Source: an uncultured virus (IMG/VR IMGVR_UViG_3300031992_000037) | Lineage: Duplodnaviria > Heunggongvirae > Uroviricota > Caudoviricetes | Direction: 5' to 3' (one strand) | DNA: 64,000 nt | Virus record (IMG/VR): IMGVR_UViG_3300031992_000037 | Shown: in pieces, positions 12,301 through 57,254 of the stretch | How the letters are laid out: each line of letters begins with the position of its first letter | Numbering within the stretch: position 1 is the first letter of the stretch | Translations under genes and position numbers: made by a program | Notes under the pieces: generated by a model | Seen by the model: only the letters and a program-made list of their open reading frames with translations | Told to the model about the DNA's origin: nothing | The model's database searches: none

Positions 12301-15300
12301 TTGCTAAGTTTCATCCCCCAAAGCTATAATAATACCCTTATTTTCAGACACCATTTTCTATAAAACAGCATATTCAAATGCATTTAATAAAGTACATTCG
12401 TCTAAAATAAAAGCGGTTTTATCAGAATTAATATAATGAATTTCTGGAAGTGTGTTAAACGTTTTTCTAGTTGGCTGGGAATCTTCTAAAATTTTACCAT
12501 CTACTATAGGTAAATGACATACAAATTCAATAACAGTTTTATCCCCATCTTTTATCTACACTATAATCTAGAGATCGTCTGGATTAGCTCTATTAATGGA
12601 GAAGCCATCTGGAAGTTCTACTTCTTCGCCCTTAGATAATTTAGAGATATTACTATTAATAAATTCCTCGGCCATCTTTTCATACTCTTTATAATTTTTA
12701 GAGTATGTTTCAAATTTTTCATCTGAAATTAATTTATGTAACTATTTAGAAGTTACACTTTCATCAGAATCACCTCCAAATAATTTATATAACTCATCAG
12801 TTTTCTCCTAAGCTAGTGCTGTTGTTGCTATTTTATATCCCTTAGATTTTAAATAATCTTTTAATAAACTAGATATAAAGGTCTTTCCAGCGCCACCCTC
12901 ACCAAATAAAAAGATCATTCTCTCCATTTGATCCTTTATCCAGAGCTCTCCTGGGTTATTATTGATCTGATTATTAATATATCTATTAACTGAGTCAAAT
13001 ATTTTTGAGTTTTCTATATAAGTAATTATCCATTCCAGTGCCTCGAGTTGATCCTATCTAGGATAAAAGTTTGGATTTTTATCAAGAACATCTTTCTATA
13101 TTATAGTCTATACACTTTTTGGATCTATGGCTAAATACCCAGAGAATTTATACGCCCAATAATATCCGTTAATTATTGAATTTCCAGCCGCGTCTTCCTG
13201 ATAAATGTTAGTAATATCTGAATCGAAATCACATAAATTTATCCCAGAATCTGTTTTAGAAATTAAATTACCTGATATTAATTCTGATGGCATGATAATA
13301 TTCTATATTATCCAATCATCCAAATCATCAGAACCTGCCTGAGATACATATTTTTCTCTAAGTGCCCTAATATTTTTACAGATTTCCTATTCACATTTTA
13401 AAATAAATTCTAATTGTGCACTCTCATCATCTGGAATATCCTGATTAATAAGCTCTTCATCGAGAAGATAATAATCCTTTTTATCAGGCAAAGTTAGCTT
13501 AGGTCTTCCTTTATAAAAAGAAACTTTACTTTTTATAAATTTTTTCTTCTAAGCCTTAAATACCTGTAATTTATTAGCAGTTAATTCCGAACTAATCTGT
13601 TTTAAATCACTCAAACGGAACTGAATATCGCTAATCATTGCTTTAACCATTCTAGCATCTTCAGGATCAATTAAACCTAATAAATCTTTTTTATGTGTAG
13701 GATCTCCATATGCATTCAGATACTAAACACGCAACTGATTAAATCCATACATTCTCTAGTCCTTCTCTAAATCATATGAAGTCATTCCTTCTATGACTGC
13801 CATCATAACTTTTAAAGTTTGTATGGTGGAATCAATTGCTTCAAGTTCAGAATCTGAAAAATTGGTTTTTTCAAAGTCGCCTTCTCCACGCTAAACTTTT
13901 AATTCCTAATCAATAAAATATTTACCTAAAGTTGATCCTTTTGTTGTTCCATTTATAGCTAAATATAATTTATCAAAAACCCCCAATAATGGATTTTTTA
14001 CCGCGGTTGAGCTAGTTACCTTAGTATTAAATTTGTTTATTTGATCAAATTCAGGCTGAAGATATTCTTTAAGAGCTTGCCCAACACTTGTTCCAACTGG
14101 ATAAGTTATTCCAATTATTTTAGAAAATTGTTCAAGTTCTTCTGGTGTATTTACTGGTTGGTAATCTTTACTTAACATCTCTCCGAATCTTTGTAAACCA
14201 TCTAATGATTTTAACGATAGATCTTGGAAATCTGATTCATATGCTACAAATTCATCCTCTCTAGCCTCAAAAAAAGGTCTTACTTTATTTAACTTATCAA
14301 TCAACTATATCTTAATAATCTACTCTATACGATCTAAAATACCCTATTCAACAGCATCATCATCCGCAATATAATCGTATAAATCATTGAACTATATTCC
14401 AGATATTTTAGATAAGTCTGCGTTTGAATTATAATTAATAACTCCAGAACGAATGTCTACAGTTGAGTCAGAAGTGTCTGCAAGTTCATTTATTCTATGT
14501 CTATATATAGAAGACTCGTCTCCATATCTCTCATTTACACGGGCAATTAGATTTTTAACAGACTCTTCATTAAGTTCAACAAATCTTGCCGCAAAAGCTT
14601 CAGAATTAATTAATTCTGCCAAAACTTTTTTCTATTCATCATTAAATCCTACAAATTCAATAACTCCATTATCTATGAGGGCTTTAGCCCAGTTAGTCTA
14701 CATTCTCTATTTAAGAGTAAATGCATTAGGATGGGCTTTTATATAAGATACTAGATTTTTAGTTCTAAATTCAGAATTTACTTTGTCAAGTTTGTCCTTA
14801 GCTGATGAAACATTTGCATCATACTAAATATCCTATTTTAACTCTTGACGAGCAGAAAGAAGCTATTTCTCTTTTTCATCATCATTCCAGGAGTCAATTA
14901 AATCTTTATCAAAAAAATGGTCTATAGGCAATTGATCTATATATTCAGATAAAGTTTCTGTATTAATTATAGACTTTTCAATAGCTTTTATTACAGCATA
15001 TTTATGCTCCATATCAACAAACTTTGATAACTCTGGTGAGATTCTTTGTTGTATAGAATCAAATACATTGACCATTAAATCCACATATTTAACAAACTCT
15101 GGAGTAACTTCCCCAAATTTATCGTGTGTATATAACTTATATAATTCATCAACCTTAGCTTTGGTTAATTTATCTGGATCTGGAGAATCGTCTTCTAACT
15201 AATCATAACTTTTATTAACTCCATCCTTATTTAAAACATTTTGATAAAAAGATTCTTTATCCAAACCTAATAAAGCTTGACCCAAGAATGGGTTAGATAT

Positions 15301-40564: not shown

Positions 40565-41974
40565 TTAATTTTGCATCAAAATGCAAGAACGATAAGGGTT
40601 GTAGACTGCTACGCCCCAATATCCGCTCATAATAAACGATCCGCCAGCTACTTTGGTAGCAACTTCACCACCACGTAAACCAACGCCTGTTACGGTATCC
40701 TCTACTAATTGTTTACCCTCTAAAGTAAACATTTCGATAGCAGGACGACCACTAGCTTTATCACCAGTAAGATCAATCAAAATACCATAACCTTTATCTT
40801 CGCCATATTCGAGACTCAATGCACGATCAACATGGATAATCAAAGTATTGCCACCAAACGTGTAAGCGTCGTAAGTAGCACCTGCTTTAATATTACCATT
40901 GGTCTGCTTTGACCAAAGATATGCACCGTCTGTCTTATTATCTGCTAAATATTGGCCAAGAACATTTTGTAAATCCATCCAAAGAATGTCATTAACGACA
41001 AGTTGGAAGGTATTACCAGTTGTATTCTTGCATTTTCTTGCCAAAGTTGTCAACATTGTGTTGAACAACGATAAATCTAAAGTTGTGTAATTGAACTTGG
41101 AAGCAAAGCGATTTATTTGAGGAATGATTCCGTCGCCAGCTATGATCGGTCTACCCATTCTGTCAGTCAACGTTGAGCGGCCTTTCTCATCCATGGTACC
41201 ATGTTGCCACAGCATACCTTGGTTACGAGTAGCCATGAAGGTGTCCAAAAGAACTTTCTTTCTTTCTGGCCATTCAAAAATCTTGCTTTGCCATTTACCC
41301 ATTTCAGTACCCCTAGAGATCTTTATGTACATTTTCTCAAGAGCTTCGTATCTCGATGAGAAATCAATGTCACAACGTATCTCTGTGATGTATTGCTGCA
41401 TAGACTCGGCATTACTTTGGAATTTAACGAAACCAGTGTCATGCAACTCTGGTTTTGCACTACCGATCCAACGAGCCTTCATACCTTTCTTGCAAACAGA
41501 AGTATCGAGAACTGCTTCACGATCACCACTCATAAGGCGAACTTGATACTCCCAATAATCGTCTGCACGACGTGTCGGAGCTTCTACAACCCAACACATT
41601 TGTTTTGAACCATCGATCATGAAAGTTTCCTCAGCCTCAAACTCACGTTTTGTAAAGGCCATGGTAATTTCAGAACCGTTCAAACCATTTTGTACTACAT
41701 CATCTGCAAAATATGCGTACTGAATCTTATTTTGTTCAATATCCCAACTAAATGATAGTGAATCTATTTTCTGGTATTTATCACTCTTCTCTTTGAGTTG
41801 ATAAACATTTCCAACAGCCTCTGTTAAATATGAAGCTGTAAATTGCTCATAAGGTTCCATACGTGACACTACACCCAAACGTTCTGGTCGATTGCCTAAG
41901 AATTTAGAAAAATCTTCGTCAGTTCTGTTATGTGCCCTTTCTGGTTTCTGAGTCATGAACTAAGCTATAACCAT
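40565..41974 (-). CDS. Major capsid protein (469 aa)
   Basis: ATG 41974 gives MVIAQFMTQK with one TAG at codon 5. Size, crAss-like motifs (GRPIIAGDGIIPQI, GYWGVAVYNPYRS), higher GC, position after an acidic scaffold-like gene and a following terminator all fit. Confidence 0.85.
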
Positions 41975-43061: not shown

Positions 43062-43367
43062 TTACAGCTATTTGATTTCCTCTTTAGCTATATCAAGATC
43101 AAGTTTAGTCCAAGTTAATTCTTTTAATCCCACCTATTTCCTCCCTTTTGGAATTACTCCTAAGGATACCCAAGCATCGAATGTAGATCTCCCCATATTC
43201 ATATATTTACACGCCTCAATCTTACTTAAAATAGCTGTTTGGTCATTCTATGATAAAATTTCTAAAGATTGGATTAACTAATCCTAAGTAAGTTTAGAAT
43301 GTCCGGCATCTATTTTATCTGCTGTTTGGCGTAAATAATCCGAAAGGGTCTTTAATAAAAAATCCAT
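43062..43367 (-). CDS. Small helix-turn-helix (excisionase/MerR-like) DNA-binding protein (101 aa)
   Basis: Code-15 translation LSKIEACKYMNMGRSTFDAWVSLGVIPKGRK; not in the ORF track. Confidence 0.65.
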
Positions 43368-43662
43368 ATAACAATAAAAATGTATTAATTAATAAAAATA
43401 ATATAATGAGATAATAACTCCAAACTGGTATTAATAACAATTCAATAATAACAGTATAGACTAATAATCTATGATAGAAACAGAAATTAAGGGCGTCAGA
43501 AGCTAGGATCATTACTAATAACCCCATTATAGGTGGAGTCATTAGGATTATTTTCGGAAGCAATAATAGTAATAGTAGTTCTAGGCTGATCTAAATCAAG
43601 ATAATAGCTGGAAGAAATTTGAGTGCCCTTAGGAACCACTTCCTTATTTCTAGAATATTCAT
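43315..43662 (-). CDS. Small multi-pass membrane protein (115 aa)
   Basis: ORF 43315-43563 extends through one TAG to ATG 43662; 3-4 hydrophobic segments. Confidence 0.6.
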
Positions 43663-43919
43663 TTAATTTTTCTTTAATAAATTTAACTAACTGACGTATA
43701 TTATACCATCTATCCGGGTATTCAACTATATGCTGATTCCCCTAAGGATCTATTATCTTAGTTCTTATATATCCATCTTGTGTTCCCATAAATTACTTTG
43801 GTAAATTATCAAATAATTCTTGTATAGTATTTTTCAAGTTATCTATCTCCAGATATTAGTCTAAACAGTTTGTTAGACTCTTCTGCTGCAAAATTGACTG
43901 TTTGAATCCTGCCTTTGGC

Positions 43920-44459
43920 TTAGACAGATTCACTGCCTTCAAGAGCAGCAATGCGGCTTTCTAAATTATGTATAGAACTCCAGAGCCCAGAGTCGTCGTA
44001 ACTGCCTGGCCCACCACCGCTTTGTTCTAGATTCTGTATGCGACTCTCATGGTCGCTAACAGATGATTCCAAGCTACTTATTTGGTCACTTAGAACAGAA
44101 CTATCAGGTAAAAATTGCCAGGAATCCTCCTACCAAGTATATTTTCTATATCTTAGAAAAATACCATAAGTAGCCGCAAATACACTTATAACTAATATAG
44201 CATTATCATTCTCTCTATAGACTGTTAAAGTTGCAGGAAATTTTGCATCAGGAGTAAATACAAATTGGCCAGATTCAAAATTATCTTTTGGTGTAAGTAT
44301 TACATTATAAATACCTGCGGGTAAATTTTCAAATGGAGTACCTGAATCTGTCCGCTCAATATTTAACTCCTCAAGATTATTCATATCAATCTTAGCTAAA
44401 ATAGTTTTATTTATAGCCTAACCTGCCTAATGTTGATTAATTGAGTAAATTTTGTTCAT
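43920..44459 (-). CDS. Fibre-like protein with C-terminal coiled coil (179 aa)
   Basis: ATG 44459, TAA 43920; heptad segments DHESRIQNLE and YDDSGLWSSIHNLESRIAALE. Confidence 0.55.
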
Positions 44460-44508
44460 AATCCACAAGTTTTTCTATTTCTTTTTTATCTTATTATAAA
44501 TTTAAATA

Positions 44509-45360
44509 TTATTCATAACTTTCTACTCCCGGTATAAATCCAGTACATTTATCATATTCAAAAGCACAATATTCGTAATCACCACATTTATTACAATCTG
44601 GCCTCTTTTTCTCCAAATTAATATCCATACAAGCTTTCATTAATTTAGCTTTATCTGACTGATTGACTAATGCCGGAATATCTTTATTTAAACAATGAGA
44701 ATCATAATATGGTTTTTCAGGATCTACATAAGTATGTGAATCTCCCATACGCTAATCCATAATAAATATTTCCCTCAATTCAGGATAATTAATTCCAAAT
44801 TCTTTAGCAATATCTGCAAACTCACAACAGAAAGTTACTTTTAATCCTAAGAAACAATTCTCCATATATTTTGCTAATTCCGCAGTTTTATAATCTGTAT
44901 ATTTAATCCTAAATGTCCCATCTTTAATTTTGGCATACATATTAGCAAGAATATTTAAATCATTTTTATCTCCGGCTAATATCACAAAGTTAGGATGTGC
45001 AGGAGCATGTACTGTAGTTCCATAATATTCTGGAGAAAATACTAAATGAGAGTTATATTTCTCTTTAAAGTATTCAGATGCCCCTATTGGAATTGTAGAT
45101 TTAATAACAATAATATTAGCCTTAGTAGCTTTTATTGCTTCTTCTACAACATTTATTTGTACACAACCATTTTCATCATTATCTGTAGGAACACATATAA
45201 ACGCAATATCATATGTTATATCTTTTTTATTAGATACTTCTGGTTTAAAAGGATCAGAAATATCTATTGTAAATCCTTTTTTAAGTAAAGGTTTTAAATC
45301 ATCATAAACATGAGTACCTATATTTCCATACCCAACAATTAATAAATTCATTGTAGTCAT
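44509..45360 (-). CDS. UDP-glucose/GDP-mannose dehydrogenase family protein, short form (283 aa)
   Basis: Rossmann IVGYGNIG, FICVPT, IKSTIPIG, FSPEY, AELAKYMENCFL; TAG at 44752 joins D-Q-R-MGDSH to the catalytic-like SHCLNKD. Confidence 0.85.
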
Positions 45361-45375
45361 AATTATATATATTTA

Positions 45376-47643
45376 TTATATGTTAATTCCTTGAATATTT
45401 GTAAATCGTGACCAATAATTTGCGTTTGCATAATCACTTTCAGATCCAACTGGAACATACAATGGTGTTGATCTTGGTACATTATACCAAGTTTTTGATC
45501 GTATTGTTGGTGGGGTCATTGCTTCACATGTTATGGAGGTCAAACCTGCGCAACCGTAGAAAGCATTCTCCTCAATATTTGTCACATTATTACCAATCGT
45601 TACAGACTTCAAACCTTTGCAACCTTCGAAAGCGTGCTCTCCGATACTTGTAACGCTATCAGGGATAGTTATAGACGTCAAACCGATGCAATCTCGGAAA
45701 GCCCAATTTCCGATACTTATTACACCGTTACCAATCGTAACCGAAGTCAAACCTTTGCAACCGTTGAAGGCCGACAGTCCAATACTTGTGACACTATCTG
45801 GAATCGTTACGGTGGTCAAACCTTTGCAACCGGCGAAAACGCACCGTTCAATACTTGTAATGCTATTTGGGATCGTTATAGATGTCAACCCAGCGTCATC
45901 GAAAGCATACTCTCCAATATTTGTTACACTATCCGGAATTGTTATGGAGGTCAAACCTACGCAATCCTCGAAAGCATGATTTCCAATACTCGTTACACCG
46001 TCAGGAATTACGGTGCTTTGACAACCTGCTATTAATTTATTAGAACTAGTTTCTATAATTGCGTTACAATTATCTCGGCTATCATATATTGTATTTTCAC
46101 TATTCACAATAATAGATGTCAAACCAGTACAGCTCAGGAAAGCATCTTCTCCAATACTGTTTACACTATTGCCAATTGTTACTGACATCAGACCACTACA
46201 ATAAGAGAAGGTATTTTTTCCAATGCTTGTGACGCCGTCGGGGATGACTATGGACGCCAAACTACTGCAACCATAGAAAGCATAAATTCCAATGCTTGTG
46301 ACGCTATCGGAAAGGTTTATAGAAGTCAAAGCTTTGCAGTCCTAGAAAGCCCCGCTTCCAATGCTTGTGACGGCATCGGGAATGGTTATAGAGGTCAAAG
46401 CTTTGCAGCCCTCGAAAGCATCACTTCCAATGCTTGTAACGCCATTGCCAAGCGTTACAGAGGTCAAACTGGTGCACTCATAGAAAGCATTGCTTCCAAT
46501 GCTTGTGACGGCATCGGGAATGGTTATAGAAGTCAAACTGCTACAATTGCGGAAAGTTTCCTCTTTTATGCTTGTGAGGGCATTGGAGAGGGTTATGGAA
46601 GCCAGACTGCTGCAACCGTTGAAAGCATTAATTCCAATGCTTGTGGCGCCATCGGGAATGATTATAGAGGTCAATCCGGTGCAACCATAGAAAGCACTTT
46701 CTCCAATACTTGTTACACTATTTGGAATTGTGACTGATGTCAGACTGCTACAACTAATGAAAGCATACTCTCCAATACTCGTTACACTATTGCCAATTGT
46801 TGCTGAGGCCAGACGGCTGCAATTAGAGAAAGCCCCATATCCAATACTCGTTACACTATTGGGAATTGTTACTGAAGTCAGATTGAAACACCCAGAGAAA
46901 GCACTATTTCCAATACTTGTTACTCTATTGCCAATTGTGACTGATGTCAGACTGCTGCAACCAGAGAAAGCATACTCTCCAATACTTTTAACGCTGTTGG
47001 GAATAGTGACAGAGGTTAAATCGCATATTGCGAAAGCAGAAGCTCCAATGCTTTTAACGCTATTTGGAATTTCTATTGAGGTCAAACCGCTACAACCATT
47101 GAAAGCCTGATCTCCAATACTGGTGACACTATTAGGAATCTCAATGGAGGTCAGACGGTAACGCATATAGAAAGCTCTATATCCGATGTTTGTAACATCT
47201 TCTTTGAATTTGATTACACCTTTTCCAGTATCCGAATCAAATTCATTAGTATCAATTTCTGGTAATGAACTTGTTTGAGATGGCTAAATTTTACTCGTTG
47301 CTGTATATCTAATTATATCACCTCTTTCTTTAATAACAGCAGCACCATTCTCTACAACTATTTTACAATCCTCCTAATTGCACTCTAATAACTGCTGACT
47401 CTCTTTAATATAGCAACTAAATGGAACGGATTCAATGATATATTTATCCGCATCATTTAATGTTTCAAAAATAACATCAACTTTATTAATAATTTCCGCT
47501 TGATTATTATTTATAATAACCATTTTATTAGCAATAGAACAGTATAATACCTAATCAGTTTCTTCAACGTATCCTACCCAAGGTATATCTTCTATTACAT
47601 AACCATTTGCTTCTGCAAGTGTTTTAAAATAACTTAAATTCAT
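45376..47643 (-). CDS. BspA-type (LRR_5) leucine-rich-repeat protein (755 aa), probable receptor-binding/fibre protein
   Basis: ATG 47643, TAA 45376; about 20 repeats of LTSITIPxSVTSIGxxAFxxC; the two ORF-track halves are joined by TAG at 46342. Confidence 0.9.
45530..47200 (-). repeat. ~69-bp coding tandem repeats (LRR units)
   Basis: Near-identical DNA blocks, e.g. ccaatgcttgtgacggcatcgggaatggttataga at ~46358 and ~46496. Confidence 0.85.
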
Positions 47644-47644
47644 A

Positions 47645-48358
47645 TTAATATACTAAAATTACATCATTTCTTTTCTTATACATTATCTATCCAAATGTCT
47701 AAAATATAGTACATTCTGTATCTAATTTTACAAGATTATAAGCAGATGTATAATTGCAATAATTCTTATAAATGTTTCTAACAATAAATTGTTCACTATT
47801 CCATTTATTCATAGGTTGTGTTTTATAAAACTCATTAACCTTCTCATAAAATTCAATTAATGCTTCTTTATAACCAATACAACATCCTGCATTTAAATAT
47901 CTGAATTTAGATGAGTGCTACCTAACAGGAGTATCTCCAAAATATCCGGGATAATTATTCTTAGAAGCATTGAATACTATACCAGCATTAAAAGATTTAA
48001 ATTTCTCAATAAGACTATCCCAATTATCAATTACTACATCATATCCATCCAATATAAGAATATATTTAGTTTCTATTTCTTTCAATGCTTTTAATATACA
48101 TTCTATTTTATAAGGATTAGACCACTTTTCTTCTCTAGGAATATAACAATTTATAATTGGTATATTATTTTCTTTTAATTGCTAATATAATACGCATTTA
48201 TTATCATCTGTCCAAATTGATAATATTGTAAGATCGTCTGGAGCCTAAGATAACTTATGACTCCAGATGTCCTACATAAAATCATTAAATACTATAGAAG
48301 TACTTCCTTGAAAATGCGCTATATTAAACTTTTTATGGCTGCGATTGAGAAATTGCAT
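47645..48358 (-). CDS. Glycosyltransferase resembling the PLOD/procollagen lysyl-hydroxylase GT domain (237 aa)
   Basis: Code-15 translation YILILDGYDVVI...LIEKFKSFNAGIVFNASKNNYP...FRYLNAGCCIGY...NSEQFI...KLDTECTIFQ follows the PLOD GT motif order. Not in the ORF track. Confidence 0.7.
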
Positions 48359-51300
48359 TTATTCTATCATTTAAGTCATTTAAAGCTGCGGCAATTACAA
48401 TAGCTGTTTCTGGTGTTAATCCTGATTCTTGAGAACCTAATTGTAATAATAACTATTGTAAAGATTTACCAGATTGTGGATTAGAACCATCATAATCACC
48501 AACTCCTTTTATAAATATACTACCATCTGTTGTAATTTCAAGAGCATTTCTATGATCTCCATCAGATTCACCAACACCGACAGAATGAATTGTTTTTAGT
48601 TTAGATGATACTGGACGGATTGAGCAACCGAACCTCTTATCAGTAACTATATTATCGGCGTATACCTCATCAAATTTTCCATATAATATATCAGCATTCG
48701 CACCATTACAAGAAGAAGTAAAATAATATAAATATCCTTCCAAATCTTCAAGTGCTTGTCCATTTATCAATCCTGCTGCAGGCAAGAAAATATATAAATC
48801 AGAATCAGACTTATTTATAAATTTCCACCCATTTACTCCATTAACAGATGTCCATTCATTGTCTGTATGTTCAATTAACTCCTCAAAATCCTTTTTACTT
48901 GGAATTCTCCAGTTTTCTCCAAGAGTTTTCGCTGCAATATCATCTTCTAATACTAATCTTGTTAATTCGTCTGGGTCTGGTGTAGAACCTCCCCACTAAT
49001 CAGAATCTGTACAATATTTTGTTAATGTACTATTTGTTCCATTACACCATTTATAAGTACTCCAATCATAGGTTCCCTTAGTCTCTGTTTCGCCCCACGC
49101 ATAGTAATCACCATAATCTTCTGGATTTTGAGCGCCAATATTACAAGTTGCCCATAAATTGCCAGAAGGCAAATCAAGATCTACATACTCGACAGAAGTG
49201 TTTATATGTACATCGTTGGATTTATTACATCTACCTTCAGCATGTTCTGCTTTATGAGTAGCTTTTGTATACCATCCTTCTGCGTGGGAATATTTTTCTT
49301 TTGCTTGTGTGTTAAAACCTTCTGAATGTGCACCACGATTTAATGCTCTAGTGTGCTCTCCTTCAGCATGTGCATATGTTCCTTCAGTATATGTTTCTCC
49401 ACCTTCTGCATGTGCACCATATCCATAGTATTCTAAACGTTGAACTTGGTATTCTCTATTTGGATATGCGTTTATATATTGTTGTAGATTATCATAATTA
49501 AAAACTTCTGGATAATCACCACTACTTCTATTTTCATGTCCTCCAGAATCACCCCAGTAGTCTATATTATACCTAGGAGAAATTTCCAGGTATGGATAGT
49601 TCTCTGAGTAAACTATAAAATTATGAAATCTAACTCCTTTCTAATGGGGGGCCCAAAAAAGCTATACACTAGAAAGTTTTCTTTCATCAAATGAATGAAT
49701 TAAAGAATTATAATCCCCGCTAATTAACTATAGTGTTACATGATTATTTGAAGAATTATAAGAACTTAATTTTACAACAGCATTTCTATCAGTATATACT
49801 TCTTTGCTCTAAATAAACGTTTTCCATCCTTCTGCATGAGAATATTTCGAATCAGTTTGTGTCTCATATCCTTCTGTATGAGAACCTTCAGAATGATCAT
49901 TTACAAAAGTATTTATACCTTCGGCATGAGCACCAATACTTAAAGATTTAGAATCAACACCTTCGGCATGAGCGGCGTCTCCATCTGCTCTAGTGTTTAT
50001 ACCTTCTGAGTGTGATGCAGTTTGAGCTGCAGCTGTATCTTTACCTTCAGCGTGTGCTGCTACCTACCATTCTTCAGAATGGTCAGAAGAACTTACATCT
50101 TCAAAATTACCTTCTGTAGAAGTATTATATCCTTCAGCATGAGAATATGCCCCACGCGCATTACAGCGAGTTCCCTCAGCATGAGATCCTATTCCAGAAG
50201 CTTGTGAATCTTCTCCTTCTGCGTGTGACCAATCTCCTTGTGCAGAACTTGATTTTCCTTCTCCGTGAGCAAAATTTCCAGATGCTTTTGTATCGATGCC
50301 TTCTGTGTGTGAATATTCACCTTCGACTTGAGTTTGCTTACCTTCAGCATGTGAACCAAATGTATAAGCAGCAGTGCCATAACCTTCCGCATGTGAGTTA
50401 CCACCAAACGCTCTTGTCTTAAATCCTTCAGAGTGTGCATTTGTGCCAGTTGCTTGTGTTCTTTCTCCTTCTGCATGCGAATGTAAACCAGAAGCATCTG
50501 ATAAGTATCCTTCAGCGTGAGAATCTTTGCCAGTAGCGCTAGTTTTGATATAGATAGCCTCGTTGATAGGCAGTGTTACTTCTCTATCAATTGTTATTTC
50601 TTCTCCATATTGATCTATTAAGGTAACAATGCCAATTATACTTCCATCAGCTTTATATAAAGGTCTGCCGATCCAGCCATTTACTTTATTTTCTTTTTCA
50701 ACATCGTACACATTTGGAACATCGGCAGAATCACTTAGTGACATGTCAAAATCACTAAAAAAGTCAGATCCCGCTAAAAAATTTTTAGCCGAATCAGATG
50801 CGCCGAAATCAGAATCAATTGATGATTGATGATATATTCTAATGATGTTAGAGTTGTCTACTGAGTTAAAAGTTCTAAACAATGTTATATGTCCACCTTC
50901 GCCTTCTGCATGAGATGCTGTACCAAATGATGTTGTATATTGTCCTTCTGCATGCGAGGAATTTCCAGTTGCACTAGTAAATTCCCCTTCTGAATGAGAG
51001 TAATCACCATCTGCTTCTGTATCTTTACCCTCTGCATGAGAGGCCTCCCCGTTTGTAACCGTGAACTAACCTCCTGCATGTGAATAGTTACCTGATGCTG
51101 TTGTACCGTAACCTTCTGCGTGTGAACCTTCACCAGATGCTGTTGTACTGTTACCTTCTGCATGAGAACAGTATTCAGAAGCTGTTGTATCGTTACCTTC
51201 TGCGTGCGAACCTTCACCAGATGCTGTTGTACCGGTACCCTCTGCGTGTGAATAGTCATCTGATGCTGTTGTAGATTCACCTTCTGCATGAGAACAGTAT

Positions 51301-52790
51301 TCAGAAGCTGTTGTATTGCTACCTTCTGCATGTGAACAATCACCTGATGCTATTGTGCTTGCTCCTTCAGCATGTGAATAGTTACCTGAAGCTGTAGTAC
51401 TTTCACCTTCTGCATGTGAAGGACTACCTGATGCTGTTGTACCGTTACCTTCTGCATGAGAATCATTACCCGATGCTGTCGTTTCTTCTCCTTCTGCATG
51501 TGAATAGTAACCTGATGCTGTTGTAGTTTTTCCTTCTGCATGAGAACAGTAACCTGATGCTGTCGTTTCTTCTCCTTCTGCGTGTGAGTAGTCCTCTGAT
51601 GCTGTTGTGTTGTAACCTTCCGCGTGAGAATCATTACCTGAAGCTGTAGTACTTTCACCTTCTGCATGTGAATAGTTACCTGATGCTGTTGTACCGTAAC
51701 CTTCTGCGTGTGAACTTTCACCAGATGCTGTCGTTTCTTCTCCTTCTGCATGTGAAGCGTCACCTTTTGATCCACATACACGTTTCCAATAATAGGTCAC
51801 TCCATCAGTTAATGAACCAGTATCAATATTGAAATAATCTCCATCATAATTACTTGTATAATAATAGCGACATATAGTGATTTTAGAAACTAGTTGAGTG
51901 CATTCACTATCGCTATAAATCCAGCCTTGAGACCCATAACCGTCATCTATATTATCACTATGATCACAATACGTAAAAGTAATTCCGGTTTTAGCTTTAA
52001 TTTTGTTTTGTTCTTCCGTTCCGATAACAGAACATACAAAGGATACGATTTCGTCTGAAATTAATCCTTGTCCTTCTGCATGTGAATAGTTACCTGAAGC
52101 TGTCGTATTATATCCTTCTGCTACAGCACTTAGTCCCGTAGCCGTGTTAAAGAGTTCTTGTCCACCGTCTTCTTCATTCTGTCTATATTCGGTTGCAAAT
52201 GAACCAGTCGTACTATCATATATATACCCTTTAGCAGAAATCTCAGTAGTTCCATCCTAATTGTCTGTAATAGTTATATTATTACCAGTAACTAGATTAT
52301 GTGACACTTCATTATCTTCAATCTAAATACCTTGGCCAGATGTATAAGGTGCCCCAGCATTAACTGCAGATATTGTAAATCGTGGATTATCAGTAGATTG
52401 TGTACCCTCAACTGGAGTTATCTTAATATTTTCTCCAACTTCATAAGTTGTATCCTTAGCATTAAGGAAATTATTAGAATCTACCCTTAGATTATTATTA
52501 ACATTAATTGCGATGAATTTTTCAAATTCATACTAAGTGTCCTAAACATCTATACCTGTTCCTCCAATATAATTAGTTTGAAACTCTCCTAATCCATAAA
52601 TCTTTCCCCGGGCCCAAATAACTTTTAAACCGTCCACATAATTTTGACCAAATGCTCTATCGTTCTAACAGGTTATAAATGCGATACTATTTTCATCAAT
52701 GATGTTAGTATCCTTAATATTTTGGATACTAACATCATTATTATTAAAAATAGTATGTAATCCTATTATATTACAAAATTTCTTTGCCAT
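48333..52790 (-). CDS. Tail fibre with SHAEG (YadA-head-like) repeats and a CLec-like domain (~1485 aa)
   Basis: ATG 52790, TAA 48333; ORFs 48453-48785, 50064-50882 and 51066-51800 are in frame; three SHAEG arrays; EYVDLDLPSGNLWATCNIGA...GCSIRPV domain. Confidence 0.85.
51066..51765 (-). repeat. 17 tandem 42-bp coding repeats (xxxSHAEGxxTTAS)
   Basis: Directly visible; more diverged arrays at ~50900-51050, ~49830-50530 and ~49230-49420. Confidence 0.9.
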
Positions 52791-52802
52791 AATTAATCAT
52801 TT

Positions 52803-55800
52803 TTAGATAAGAACCCCGTCATATCTCACATGCCATGAGGCACTGCTTGTATTTCCAAAAATCAATATTGGCTATGAACCATTGATAATAATATCTGCTT
52901 TTAACAAATTCTACCATGTAGCCGGAGTTCCCTGATAATAAATGGTAGTTTTATCATCAGAGCCTGTTTTTGTATAAATTGCACTATCTCTAATCTATTT
53001 TAAATTTGGACCTAAATATAACTCATAATTAATTCCATTAATTCCATTAAGGGAAGTATATCTATATAGATCCTCAATATTTTGGAATTTAATACTTGTC
53101 AATTGTGGACAATTATTAAGACAATCTTCAAAATTGTATTTACATCCAACCTCCACAGATGTTAACTGCTAGCAATTTTCAAATACTCGAGCAGATAAAA
53201 CATCAACATTATTAAAACCACCTACAGAAGTAATCTATGTTCCAGAAAATGCCTAATCATCTACAAATCTAACAGAATCTGGAATATTTAAATCTCCACC
53301 TAGTCCAGAATTTTTAAATGCACAAAATCCAATGCTCTCAATAGTACTGAAATTTGAATCATTAAAATTCTATAAGGTGCTGTTATTAAATGTAAATGGT
53401 GGGATTTTATTTAATCCCCACTTAATCTCTGTTAAATTTCTGCAATTCTAAAAACATCCAGCTCCAATATCTAAAACATATTCATCAAAGCCATAAACAT
53501 CAGATATTGCAGAATTATATAATACATAATTTCCAAGTGTTACTGGTGCTATAATTGTACAACTCTATAATAATGATCTTTCTGCCAAAGCATAATCAGC
53601 AACATTATCAACATCATATCCAATTATAACACGCCGGGCTTGAATTGGAATCTACCCCTTTTCTAGAGTCCTGTTCTAAATATCAACAGAAATCCACCCA
53701 TTACCATTATAATATTGTGTTGGATATGAAAATTTAGGAACAAATGTCGTATCCTACAATATAGGCTCAGAAATATCAGGTGACCAACCTAAAAACTTAT
53801 ATCCACCGCCATATGTAGAAGCTGGTGTGGGCTATTGTCCTGTATATATTACATTTCTATTATAAAGAACCTGTTTTATTTCTATTGGAGAACCTCCTCC
53901 ATTTAAAAAGGTAACGGTTCTTTTCCAATTGGTTGGAATATGTGAATCATCAAATATCCACTAAAGTTCTGAATTAGTAAAATCTCCTTCAGTAGTTTCT
54001 ACTCCTTTTACCCAATCTGTAAATGTTCCCCAAGTTCTAAATCCGACAGATAATTTATTTAATCTAGAGCATCCAGAAAACATTTCAGTTAATGCATCGT
54101 CAGAAGCAGTAGTTGCTAAAATGGTAGCTTGTGAGAGCCGCTTATTATTTTTAAACATCTGGACATAAGCACCAGTAGGAATATTTGTTGCTGGAAGGAT
54201 TACCTCAGATGTTAAGAATAATGATGAACCACTAAAAGTTTCCCTATAACAATCCTAAGTTAAAGTTGTTGCAGGAAGTATTACTGATCCAAAAATATGC
54301 TCATCTTTAAAGAGCCCCTAAAATGCACCTTTATGAAATATTATTGTTGCATCTGGATTCTATCCCTATAAACTCATAATAGAACCCTCAACACCCATAA
54401 GTGTAAAACTACCAGTCGCAATCGGTTTAAAGTGTATATTAGGATAATCTGAGTAAATTTTTCCAGATACCTCTATATAATTAGAGACTGCTATCTTTGA
54501 CCCAGATGTAAATACTTGCCAATCATTTTCAGAAGTAGTTCTATAAAAGATTGTTGCGCGACTCTCATCATAGGTACATTGTATATATATATTTCCCTGA
54601 TTTCCATCCTTATAAAATTTTAAGAATGAATATTGTGGTTCTGGAATATCTTCTATAGGAGTCTTTGTATATATAGCTTTATATATAATATCCTGAGTTA
54701 CATAGGGATTAAATGATGGAGACCAACCACTAAAAACATAAGAATTCTAAGAATCATTAGGTCTGGTGGGATTAGCCGGAGCTGTTACATTTGTGCCAAA
54801 ATCATACGAACCAGTTTGAATAGATGAATTATCCCAATCTACAAAGGTTACTCTATATTGTTTAGATACTTTTGAAAACTATGCTGTATATACATAATCC
54901 TAATTATTTACAACATCAATTTTCTTATCCCAACCACTGAACGTGTATTCATATTGTGAATCCGGAACATGTGTTGGAGTTTTCCCCTTATACACGGGTA
55001 GATTCCCGTTATCATAATAAGAACTCTTTAGAACAGTTCCATCATAATTTTTAAAGGTAACTTTCCAACGATCTGTATTATACTGAGCCTCATATACTGC
55101 ATCTCTATATGCTGGAACGATAGCTGGAAACCACTCTAGCAGTTCATAGCCTGGAATATCATGTCCAGAAGGTGGTATTGGAAGCGTTCCGTCCCCAACT
55201 TCTATTGTTACTTCGTCTAAAGGACTAAATTTAAAAGTAATCTAATGACCCTAAGAATACCAATCATCGGAAGTAGAAACACCTGTATAGTCAACTGTGT
55301 TGTCTGGGATAATATCTATAGAATTATCAGCTGAAGATATAGACATTTGGCAATCACATCCACCACCACTACTAGAACCAGTTCCACAGCACGCTATATT
55401 AGTTACAGCCGAACCATCTGAATAAAATAATTTATTCGTAATGGAATTATGCATTAAATGGCTACCAGTAAAGATATCTAATGGTTTGGTGTTAGTTAGT
55501 TCCCATGACTCTGTATCCTTATTATATCTATATTCTTCATTACTTGGAAATTTCCAAATTGGGCTGTCCTAATCTTTAATTATTTTAAAAACTCCACCAG
55601 GTGTTGAATCCGATAATAGTGCAAATCCAGTATTCGAACTAGAAAAGAGATCAAAGGCCTCTTTTACAAGATTATTATTAGAGAAATCTTTTATATGGAC
55701 CTAACCTTGTAGGTCTATATAAGACACTTTATAATCTTTAAAGTTAATTATGACCGGTCGATCTTCATTAATTCTTATATTAACGTCTGAAGAATTAGTA

Positions 55801-57254
55801 TCATGTACGTCAGAAAATGCTAATCTAAGAGAATTCTATTCTTTTATTATATGTACCTAAATTGATGAGCCGTTATTCACATTATAATTATCATAAGATT
55901 CATCAAATGGAACTATCTTTAAGCCATCTTCCTAAGTAATTAATGTTCCGCCTAGATAATATTTATCAGAGTCTGGATAGGTTTCCTAATCATTTTTCGC
56001 CCAAGCAATTGGAATAACATCGCAATTACGTGAATCTACTTCAAAAGTTGGTTCATTCTGGATTCCATCAAATTTTACTGCTGATTTATAATATCCGGCA
56101 CCACTCTCAAAATTATATTTAGTGCCATCATATATAGCACCTCCGCAAGCTGCAAAAATATTAAAAGGTTTATCAAATTTTAAAACAGTAACACCAACTG
56201 TTTGATCCCCCCATCCAAATGGATATGGGAAACGAGTCTCCTTGCGATAATTATTCATCTAAACGGCCAACATATATAGAGTATTTTCATCCTCATATAC
56301 TATTGGACATATCATTAGAGCATCAGTCCTGGACGATTGATTAGCCTCCTATATAACTCCCGCACTTATAATTATATCCAAATCACCAAACTGATTTGGT
56401 TCAGATTTAAAAAATGTTGAGGTAGCTGTATTTGCAAGCTGCTCTATATAAGAATAATCTCCACCATCTGGACACGTAGTTTCAGAATTACTTAATTCTA
56501 ACTGCTTTGTCTCTTGATTATATGTTAATGTGGAATTTAAATTCGTTTTAGTTTTAGTCTAAGCATTATAGTATGCCCATGTAGTAAATCCTGTTCCAAC
56601 ATTCTCGGCTTCCCAAGTAGATTCACCTGCAAAGTGCGAGATGTCTGGATTTAAGGGCGTATTAAATTCAGAATTTTTTGCCACAAATGCCTAACTAATT
56701 TCTCCACCATAACTTCCGCCATTTTTAGGTATGGTGGGTTTCAAACTTCCCAATTCATCATCATAGGCCCATAAAACATGAGGTGTCCAAGTATTTACAA
56801 TACTAGAAATAGTGAATGGAGTTGATAATTTTTCTTTTACTAATTCAAAGTCTGCATCATTATCTACAACATAAGCCCCGGTAAGCATTAAGTAATCAGC
56901 TACTAAATCATCTCCATTAAAATATATAAGCTTATGCTTCTCAGTTGGAATACTATTGGTAGTTAATGAAATTATTTTTATATTTCCGTAAGAATCAGTA
57001 ATATGTAAATCATCCCCAATTCTATCAAAGTTATAAGTAGTATTTGTATCCTAATTATTACAATTAAAAATCTGCCCCTATGTCCAAATATATTTTCCTA
57101 AAGCTGGATCATCAATAAAAAGAACCACATCGTGATCTAATCCAGTTTTTGGGTCTATGTCTGAAAGATTGTACGGAATTGGCGAGTTGTTTACATTAGC
57201 TGTAAACACACTCGCAAATCCGTCAGTATATGCAAACTTTACTTTATTATTCAT
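52803..57254 (-). CDS. Fibre/adhesin-like protein with InlB B-repeat-like domains and C-terminal LRR-like region (~1483 aa)
   Basis: ATG 57254, TAA 52803; WKVTFKNYDGTVL...YTFSGWD...YTAQF and YRVTFVDWD...YVFSGWSP repeats; LPATTLT and IPDSVRFVDDQAF segments. Confidence 0.75.

Follow-up and report, generated by a model that had tools for sequence, protein, structure and literature searches.

A cassette of four genes lies in a 64,000-nt stretch of DNA from an uncultured virus (IMG/VR record IMGVR_UViG_3300031992_000037). The stretch is called the window here, and its own coordinates are used unless another locus is named. The window makes up the structural half of a phage that is classed as crAss-like by the match of its capsid gene to PF23898. 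The phage's genome record (G000) spans 117 kb and is about 74% complete, and sheep-gut sequencing runs contain the window stretch; scans of IMG/VR found no relatives of its capsid and fibre proteins. On the minus strand, the cassette encodes, in order, a fibre built of SHAEG repeats, a glycosyltransferase (GT), a leucine-rich repeat (LRR) protein, and a short dehydrogenase. An earlier note on this DNA had described the same order and common orientation, and both are confirmed, with gaps of -26 nt between fibre and GT (the fibre overlaps the GT start), 1 nt between GT and LRR gene, and 15 nt between LRR gene and dehydrogenase. Taken together, the genes form a recurring, fibre-associated GT module that combines an apparently undescribed, probably permuted PLOD-type domain with a truncated dehydrogenase.

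The phage reads TAG as glutamine. With this assignment, open reading frames (ORFs) of at least 100 aa cover 84% of the window, versus 21% under translation table 11 and 24% when TGA is read as tryptophan. The reading is also supported by homologues, since 19 of the 20 aligned carry Gln at GT residue 220, where the window has a TAG codon. All four cassette genes are open under this code. Under table 11, as the earlier note had it, both enzymes are hidden or broken: the six TAG codons of the GT leave no ORF of 60 aa, and the single one in the dehydrogenase splits its ORF into 202 and 79 aa. Across the genome record, TAG occurs in 50 of 54 genes of the minus-strand structural block versus 3 of 28 in the plus-strand block, where it makes up 47% and 2% of Gln codons, respectively. 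As TAG encodes 6 of the 11 glutamines of the GT, the enzyme would be made only once late readthrough is on. Both enzymes carry TAG codons as late genes do, and a late timing, which is likely, would fit work on the virion. Late restriction of stop-codon recoding is discussed in passages of PMC12386605. RNA libraries (two runs of one sample) did not support expression, the region appearing only in contigs that also cover its flanks, with gaps over the GT among the pieces listed. Promoter and terminator scans of the window stayed at chance level, and a search of it for tRNAs returned none.

What kind of enzyme is the GT? PLOD-type GTs have been characterised in animals and in mimivirus, and the window protein matches their profile, PF25342 (GT_PLOD), with 49.2 bits against a cut-off of 27, over positions 54 to 190 of 246; PHROGs and NCBIfam gave no family for it. 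In the structure model (pLDDT 93.6), residues 38 to 237 align with the GT domain of LH3, the PLOD3 product (6wfv), at a VIA Z of 17.0 (rmsd 3.1, 187 residues aligned) and with mimivirus R699 at a Z of 16.0. The next unrelated fold, the PBCV-1 capsid glycosyltransferase, follows at 10.0, and a Foldseek search agrees. The comparison with the PLOD3 GT domain that the earlier note had proposed thus bears out the likeness, and by its model the protein has the GT-A fold of PLOD3 and R699. No membrane segment was found in it, and it is predicted to be a soluble, metal-dependent glycosyltransferase.

The motifs first noticed in the sequence (DGYD, YLNAG, and LD...IFQ) are all present, but the metal motif is the PLOD-type DxxD rather than a DxD. 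Key residues are His15, Trp79, Lys84, the D104xxD107 pair, Asn156, S188-E189-Q190, and Arg194. The family, 152 clusters at an E value of 1e-30 or better, was represented by 150 distant members from a search of 1.84 billion proteins. Conservation among these is high for Lys84 (146/147), Asp104 (149/150), Asp107 (148/150), Asn156 (144/149), Gln190 (143/146), and His15 (127 of the 129 that cover the N terminus). A profile alignment, read with the residue list in excerpts of PMC12279948, equates Lys84 with K62 of R699, Asp104 and Asp107 with D83 and D86, Asn156 with N138, and S188-E189-Q190 with D162-D163-Q164. In LH3, Mn is held by Asp112, Asp115, and His253, while Trp75 and Tyr114 stack on UDP (PMC6082870, in part); Trp79, matched by eye, and Tyr106 of the GT correspond to the stacking pair, with Tyr106 variable across the family. 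The GT is likely to be PLOD-like in binding metal and donor, but to use another donor or acceptor.

Where is the histidine that would complete the metal site? The GT has the DxxD of LH3, and a counterpart of the His is present only if the domain is permuted. Matches begin near GT residue 38 or later and stop before the His-bearing segment of LH3 and R699; the protein is not collinear with PLOD, which qualifies its earlier description as PLOD-like. Very probably the domain is a circularly permuted PLOD-type domain, and His15 is strongly suggested to be the third Mn ligand beside Asp104 and Asp107. The HGNG motif, found at the C terminus of 116 of 118 canonical phage domains, occurs in 0 of the 150 family representatives. 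Two distant members, P0379 and P0404 (P numbers denote family representatives), appear to bridge the gap between the permuted family and LH3. P0379 aligns with LH3 in two out-of-order stretches, residues 46-224 on 16-202 and 4-21 on 218-235 (conditional E 0.003), and P0404 begins with H-A-N-G and keeps the LH3-type acceptor motif, although by itself it gave no second aligned stretch.

Profiles of the N-terminal segment were searched as well. One made from eight N termini put the His253 segment of LH3 at the top of 177,635 PDB sequences with an E value of 0.08, which is optimistic because the eight were picked after the likeness had been noticed. When the canonical His segment was moved to the front, the profile score rose by 6, compared with 0.8 for a control, and the segment around His15 was the best of the His-containing segments in 31 of 44 proteins (chance 14; four controls 10 to 13), these proteins having been prefiltered for the motif and being related to each other; both results are weak support. 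A profile of 88 N termini matched HGNG in 29 of 64 canonical proteins, with 1 of 30 column-shuffled controls doing better and 2 more coming close. A profile built from 54 close-family N termini retrieved neither LH3 nor R699 from the PDB at E 10 and did not match HGNG in two canonical phage proteins, and an ungapped profile slide for the permutation returned a p value of 0.57.

The enzyme also departs from its collagen-modifying relatives. The position of LH3 Glu141 is Ser132 in the window GT and Thr or Ser in 125 of 150 representatives, and that of Asp190 is Ser188, with Ser in 126 of 148. According to passages of PMC10342707, LH3 loses glucosyl transfer altogether when it carries either Glu141Ala or Asp190Ser. 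Asn130 and Arg194 (Arg or Lys in 142 of 147) are conserved specifically in this family; one guess is that Arg194 meets a carboxylate. The 74%-complete genome has no collagen-like run of six Gly-X-Y, only one Gly-rich tract, and no hydroxylase of the PF13640 oxygenase type. Judged by its sequence, the window GT is not a collagen enzyme. The PLOD chemistry invoked in the earlier note does not transfer directly: the fold does, but residues that LH3 needs for collagen glucosylation are replaced.

The second enzyme had been called a UDP-sugar dehydrogenase, and this holds for part of the protein. A shortened N-terminal, NAD-binding domain and the central domain are present, but the C-terminal domain is missing: the protein ends at 283 aa, and there is no Pfam match to the C-terminal nucleotide-binding domain. 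It aligns with 7kws at a VIA Z of 23.2 and by sequence at E 7e-17. The sequence match stops at residue 283 of 393 in 7kws, and the structural alignment reaches 331 of 387 via a low-confidence tail. GxGxxG, Asp36, Lys164, Asn168, Arg204, Cys223, Lys226, and Asp227 are found in 116 of 116 aligned dehydrogenases, and the Lys, Asn, Cys, and Asp among them presumably have the catalytic roles known from full-length enzymes. The protein keeps the UDP-sugar-dehydrogenase catalytic set and is predicted to oxidise the C6 of a sugar to the uronic form. The short family numbers 564 clusters at 90%, and the best 120 homologues are 173 to 332 aa long (median 255). A Cys-rich tail, CxxC...C...C (44512-44600, minus strand), is present in 6 of these 120 and nearly identical in L001, a code-11 large phage, and L079 (L numbers label compared loci). 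The DNA is about 68% identical, which suggests that crAss-like phages and other large gut phages have exchanged genes.

The short dehydrogenase is rare among cultured phages: 72 of 50,697 records match it, and 4 match the GT. Microbacterium cluster EC phages encode a 260-aa version adjoining a GT, and passages of PMC7302621 merely name these genes. In L015, L144, and L174, the short dehydrogenase is fused to GT-like domains recognised by eye (561 to 567 aa). In L028-L041 and L047-L060 it is part of head-morphogenesis modules, where its neighbours are portal, GT2/GT4, methyltransferase, sulfotransferase, and deacetylase genes; in these other phages the modules are candidates for capsid glycosylation. 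It adjoins a gene resembling the TET-associated GT (PF20691 in L044) in L043-L046, L150, L154, L165, and L170, and the Microbacterium EC phages (L211) show a similar neighbourhood of GT, ParB-like, and AAA genes; its use there is possibly DNA modification. SP-15 was considered as a DNA-modification precedent for it and ruled out, the SP-15 enzyme being full length at 436 aa. A conserved bacterial locus in Paenibacillus (L138-L163) combines it with GT2, an LPG-synthase-like membrane protein, a weak TMEM260-like match, an FTR1 permease, and a copper-amine-oxidase-N protein.

Which proteins could receive the sugar? The main candidate is the SHAEG fibre, with 40 repeats and 20% Ser plus Thr, followed by the LRR protein downstream of the GT (24% Ser plus Thr). 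What had been called an LRR fibre is a BspA-type LRR repeat protein whose place in the virion is that of a candidate only. Its N-terminal domain is common to LRR proteins that follow the GT in related phages (L005, L071-L074, L077). The nearby capsid gene places the cassette in the late structural block.

Table 1. Genes of the cassette and its surroundings
Feature	Position	Strand	Match
PLOD/R699-fold GT-A glycosyltransferase, 237 aa, 6 TAG=Q, likely circularly permuted	47645..48358	-	PF25342 E 5e-13
Short UDP-sugar-dehydrogenase-like protein, 283 aa, 1 TAG=Q	44509..45360	-	Pfam PF03721 + PF00984 only
BspA-type LRR protein, 755 aa, candidate acceptor	45376..47643	-	Pfam LRR_5 E 6e-194
SHAEG-repeat (YadA-head-like) fibre, 1485 aa, main candidate acceptor	48333..52790	-	Pfam YadA_head E 3e-8
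LRR / Listeria-Bacteroides-repeat protein, 1483 aa, upstream of fibre	52803..57254	-	LRR_5 8e-19, Flg_new 0.004
182-aa gene after dehydrogenase	43920..44468	-	Weak Phage_tail_NK (tail-needle-knob) E 0.0018, below cut-off
crAss-type major capsid protein	40565..41974	-	PF23898 E 3e-14; PHROG major head E 3e-10

Between the cassette and a scaffold-like gene, the window holds small ORFs (43062-43789, minus strand): an HTH-like one of 101 aa, a very hydrophobic one of 115 aa, and one of 97 aa. Elsewhere in the genome record, further genes, labelled by eye as BspA-type LRR-like, lie in the early-type block (G000 C1, 98539-100409, plus strand). These lack TAG, so not every LRR protein of the phage need be part of the virion. 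Two genes at G000 C1, 77670-79474 (minus strand), are putative chaperonin-subunit genes.

How often does the GT stand beside fibre genes? Searches with it returned 69 loci and 73 genes, which form 42 clusters at 85% identity; fibre and LRR contexts were counted by hand on these 42. L069, 100% identical to the window, was left out as an independent case, as were ten further GT clusters from the dehydrogenase searches, nine of which have tail-type genes within three genes. A fibre or tail gene lies at most two genes from the GT, on the same strand, in 16 of the 42 clusters, one of them the window's own genome. Three have only an LRR gene, and in three a fibre or LRR gene is adjacent on the other strand. 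In other phages, too, a related fibre gene immediately precedes the GT. Among the phages that carry the GT are crAss-like ones, both TAG-recoded and code-11 (L006 was placed there by the likeness of its portal and terminase, L002 by its capsid), as well as jumbo phages and phages or prophages of the Firmicutes type. The co-occurrence with fibre genes proposed in the earlier note thus extends well beyond Crassvirales, but the GT and dehydrogenase do not form a fixed pair.

A short dehydrogenase lies within 5 kb of the GT on the same strand in 11 of the 42 clusters (10 loci, or 9 without the window's own genome); of the clusters without one, 7 have full flanks and 24 have flanks too short to tell. 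The GT-adjacent dehydrogenases belong mostly to the branch that holds the window's enzyme. In L002, a code-11 crAss-like phage, the order is GT, pectate-lyase-like gene, dehydrogenase, scaffold-like gene, and capsid. Other permuted GTs are fused to NAD epimerases (P0271, P0278, P0284, and L005 at 12780-14276), and the combination with an NAD-dependent sugar epimerase, fused or following and in both orders, is also seen in L008 and L088. L005 carries an epimerase-linked GT and a fibre-linked GT 4 kb apart.

Many unrelated phages carry this GT family next to fibre genes, which makes it likely that they glycosylate their own fibres. For the window, the slightly favoured explanation is that fibre or LRR adhesin proteins are glycosylated in the cytoplasm late in infection, with the dehydrogenase supplying uronic acid. 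The GT would be made late as a soluble enzyme and, before particles are released, would attach a sugar to the fibre or the LRR adhesin of its own phage. Ser and Thr residues of these proteins would be the acceptors. The donor would be of the UDP type, as suggested by the match of Trp79 and Tyr106 to the UDP-stacking residues of LH3, and the short dehydrogenase would oxidise the sugar at C6 to supply an acidic (uronic) one. Given the rest of this explanation, a uronic-acid donor is about an even bet. The dehydrogenase would be an optional donor-supply part, for which other phages swap in an epimerase or which they omit. The benefit, speculatively, is that the fibre is shielded from gut proteases or its binding to host glycans tuned.

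Several observations weigh against this explanation. In 8 of the 42 clusters, one AT-rich phage branch (L009, L013, L104, L108, L109, L112-L114, and L116), the GT has helicase, reductase, and coiled-coil neighbours and no fibres, and in 12 its context is unclear. The closest relatives of the window GT, in L005 and L006, have a fibre and no dehydrogenase nearby. None of nine whole GT-bearing records (one of the nine complete) has the dehydrogenase, and this GT is near a short dehydrogenase in only 3 of 40 viral and 5 of 60 genome clusters; elsewhere the dehydrogenase adjoins GT2/GT4, the TET-associated DNA GT, or bacterial genes. Unrelated cargo is commonly inserted where the tail module ends. 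With the counterparts of Glu141 and Asp190 replaced, the donor or the acceptor has to be a different one, and LH3 gives no guide to either. In full-length UDP-sugar dehydrogenases the C-terminal domain helps bind the nucleotide, and the short enzyme lacks it; the loop before its catalytic Cys is YDSH, not the G-G type. Because the whole records lack the dehydrogenase and the GT is rare near it, the stable link is that of GT to fibre, with dehydrogenase or epimerase optional.

Might the two enzymes simply be separate cargo that shares no target and has collected where the tail module ends, at a variable site? Their closest neighbours differ, they swap partners between crAss-like and jumbo phages, the dehydrogenase also occurs with many other partners, and GC content changes from gene to gene (GT 0.26, LRR gene 0.39, dehydrogenase 0.28). 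Yet separate branches of both trees contain the pair, in either gene order, although just 72 of the cultured records match the dehydrogenase and 4 the GT, and both enzyme types occur fused to nucleotide-sugar partners, making shared-site cargo a distinctly unlikely account.

In two family members the GT domain sits C-terminally behind a fibre-like N terminus: P0319 (Mtd_N, E 8e-6, and tail PHROGs) and, weakly, P0307 (E 0.01). One could postulate from these that the domain is borne on the virion near the fibre tip, as a glycan-binding or receptor-modifying part. The gene directly follows the fibre, the usual place of fibre partners, and a vaccinia surface protein with a GT fold is among the fold matches (Z 7.4). 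The GT keeps its full metal and nucleotide-sugar site, however, and its partners are cytoplasmic NAD enzymes, whereas nucleotide sugars are unavailable outside the cell, so that a virion-borne role is quite improbable.

Pectate-lyase-like or other beta-helix genes directly adjoin the GT in L002, L097, L126, L115, and L118. Pectate lyases act on uronic-acid polymers, and those beside the GT may hint at the sugar involved. They also suit a role at the cell surface: late in infection, the pair would modify glycans of the host surface, or produce a glycan that is free or lipid-linked, and so block superinfection or keep progeny from binding to debris of the lysed cell. Such a role has been proposed for a late GT of Gratiaviridae (passages of PMC8008677), R699 glucosylates free glucose too (excerpts of PMC12279948), and several GT carriers adjoin integrase, amidase, or holin-like genes. 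This is nonetheless unlikely: the GT lacks a membrane segment, nor was a flippase, polymerase, or lipid-carrier enzyme seen among its neighbours in the window. The fibre-like fusions fit fibres better, as do the two to four copies of the GT that alternate with fibre genes in L010 and L133. L010, a complete 182-kb phage, has a GT on each side of a tail fibre and no dehydrogenase.

Glycosylation of phage DNA against restriction would give the enzymes yet another target. Phage GTs put uronic acids and other sugars on DNA (bioRxiv 2023.12.21.572611, in part), the short dehydrogenase stands beside the TET-associated GT in L044, and one branch of the GT family adjoins helicases. The TAG load, however, marks both enzymes as late, their neighbours are structural, and the fold of the GT matches protein- and glycan-modifying enzymes. 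The PF13640 class of 2OG-Fe(II) oxygenase, the one base-modifying family searched for, was not found in the partial genome or next to the cassette, and the SP-15 dehydrogenase falls outside the short family. A DNA target is very improbable.

A bolder version of the fibre explanation, and a rather doubtful one, is that the dehydrogenase, having no nucleotide-binding domain, oxidises sugar already attached to protein, and that the permuted GT branch, shared by phages of the gut and of other environments, coats non-collagen fibres or adhesins with acidic sugars. If so, uronic-acid glycoproteins would be reached by a new route. Few phages have documented virion glycosylation, and a sugar-coated fibre here would be the first glycosylated virion among crAss-like phages in the literature searched. 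Should the GT family act on fibres, fibre glycosylation would be a common trait of gut phages, affecting host range, stability, and antibody recognition. The permuted GT would also be a naturally occurring version of the human collagen glycosyltransferase fold in which the acceptor site is altered. Like the short dehydrogenase, it is a small protein that should be soluble.

How does the module compare with known systems? The window GT shares with LH3/PLOD3 (6wfv, 6fxk) and R699 (9dyt) the fold, the DxxD, the donor-site Lys, Asn, and Gln, the UDP-stacking aromatics, and, if the domain is permuted, the His-bearing segment. That segment is C-terminal in LH3 and R699 but would be N-terminal in the window protein, a stand-alone enzyme with Thr/Ser and Ser at the Glu141 and Asp190 positions and its own Asn130 and Arg194. 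The setting differs too, with neither collagen repeats nor hydroxylase found in the partial genome. The dehydrogenase shares the NAD-binding and central domains and the catalytic Lys, Asn, Cys, and Asp with UDP-glucose/GDP-mannose dehydrogenases such as Cj1441 (7kws) and Klebsiella pneumoniae Ugd, but not their C-terminal domain, and its shortened N-terminal domain, YDSH loop, and Cys-rich tail set it apart. In literature covered outside subscription papers and supplements, no report was found of a PLOD-type GT in tailed phages, a permuted PLOD domain, glycosylated crAss-like virions, or an activity for the truncated dehydrogenase.

Closer in setting are CRP-6 gp58 of a Roseobacter phage and WLW37668 of the Synechococcus phage S-8S55, which combine GT25, a canonical PLOD-GT, and 2OG-Fe(II) domains in one protein; 118 homologues of this fusion type were found. 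Their genes (L208:7476-9245 and L209:7350-9215) follow tail-fibre genes, and the CRP-6 fibre gp60 has collagen repeats. They thus resemble the window GT in GT domain family and in placement just after tail fibres. The canonical fusions differ in carrying HGNG at the C terminus, and those of CRP-6 and S-8S55 keep the acidic acceptor residues; the window family shows none of these, and no collagen fibre like that of CRP-6 either. Both phages are cultured and offer a ready test system for the canonical family. A precedent for virion glycosylation itself comes from mycobacteriophages, whose own GTs have been shown or proposed to glycosylate virion proteins, as cited in passages of PMC11256854 and PMC12619734. 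Like those enzymes, the window GT is phage encoded, and it lies in a structural block with late-type TAG use. In the mycobacteriophages described there, capsid and tail-tube subunits are modified, while in the window phage the targets would likely be fibres or adhesins, the enzyme is of the PLOD type, and a donor enzyme is often attached.

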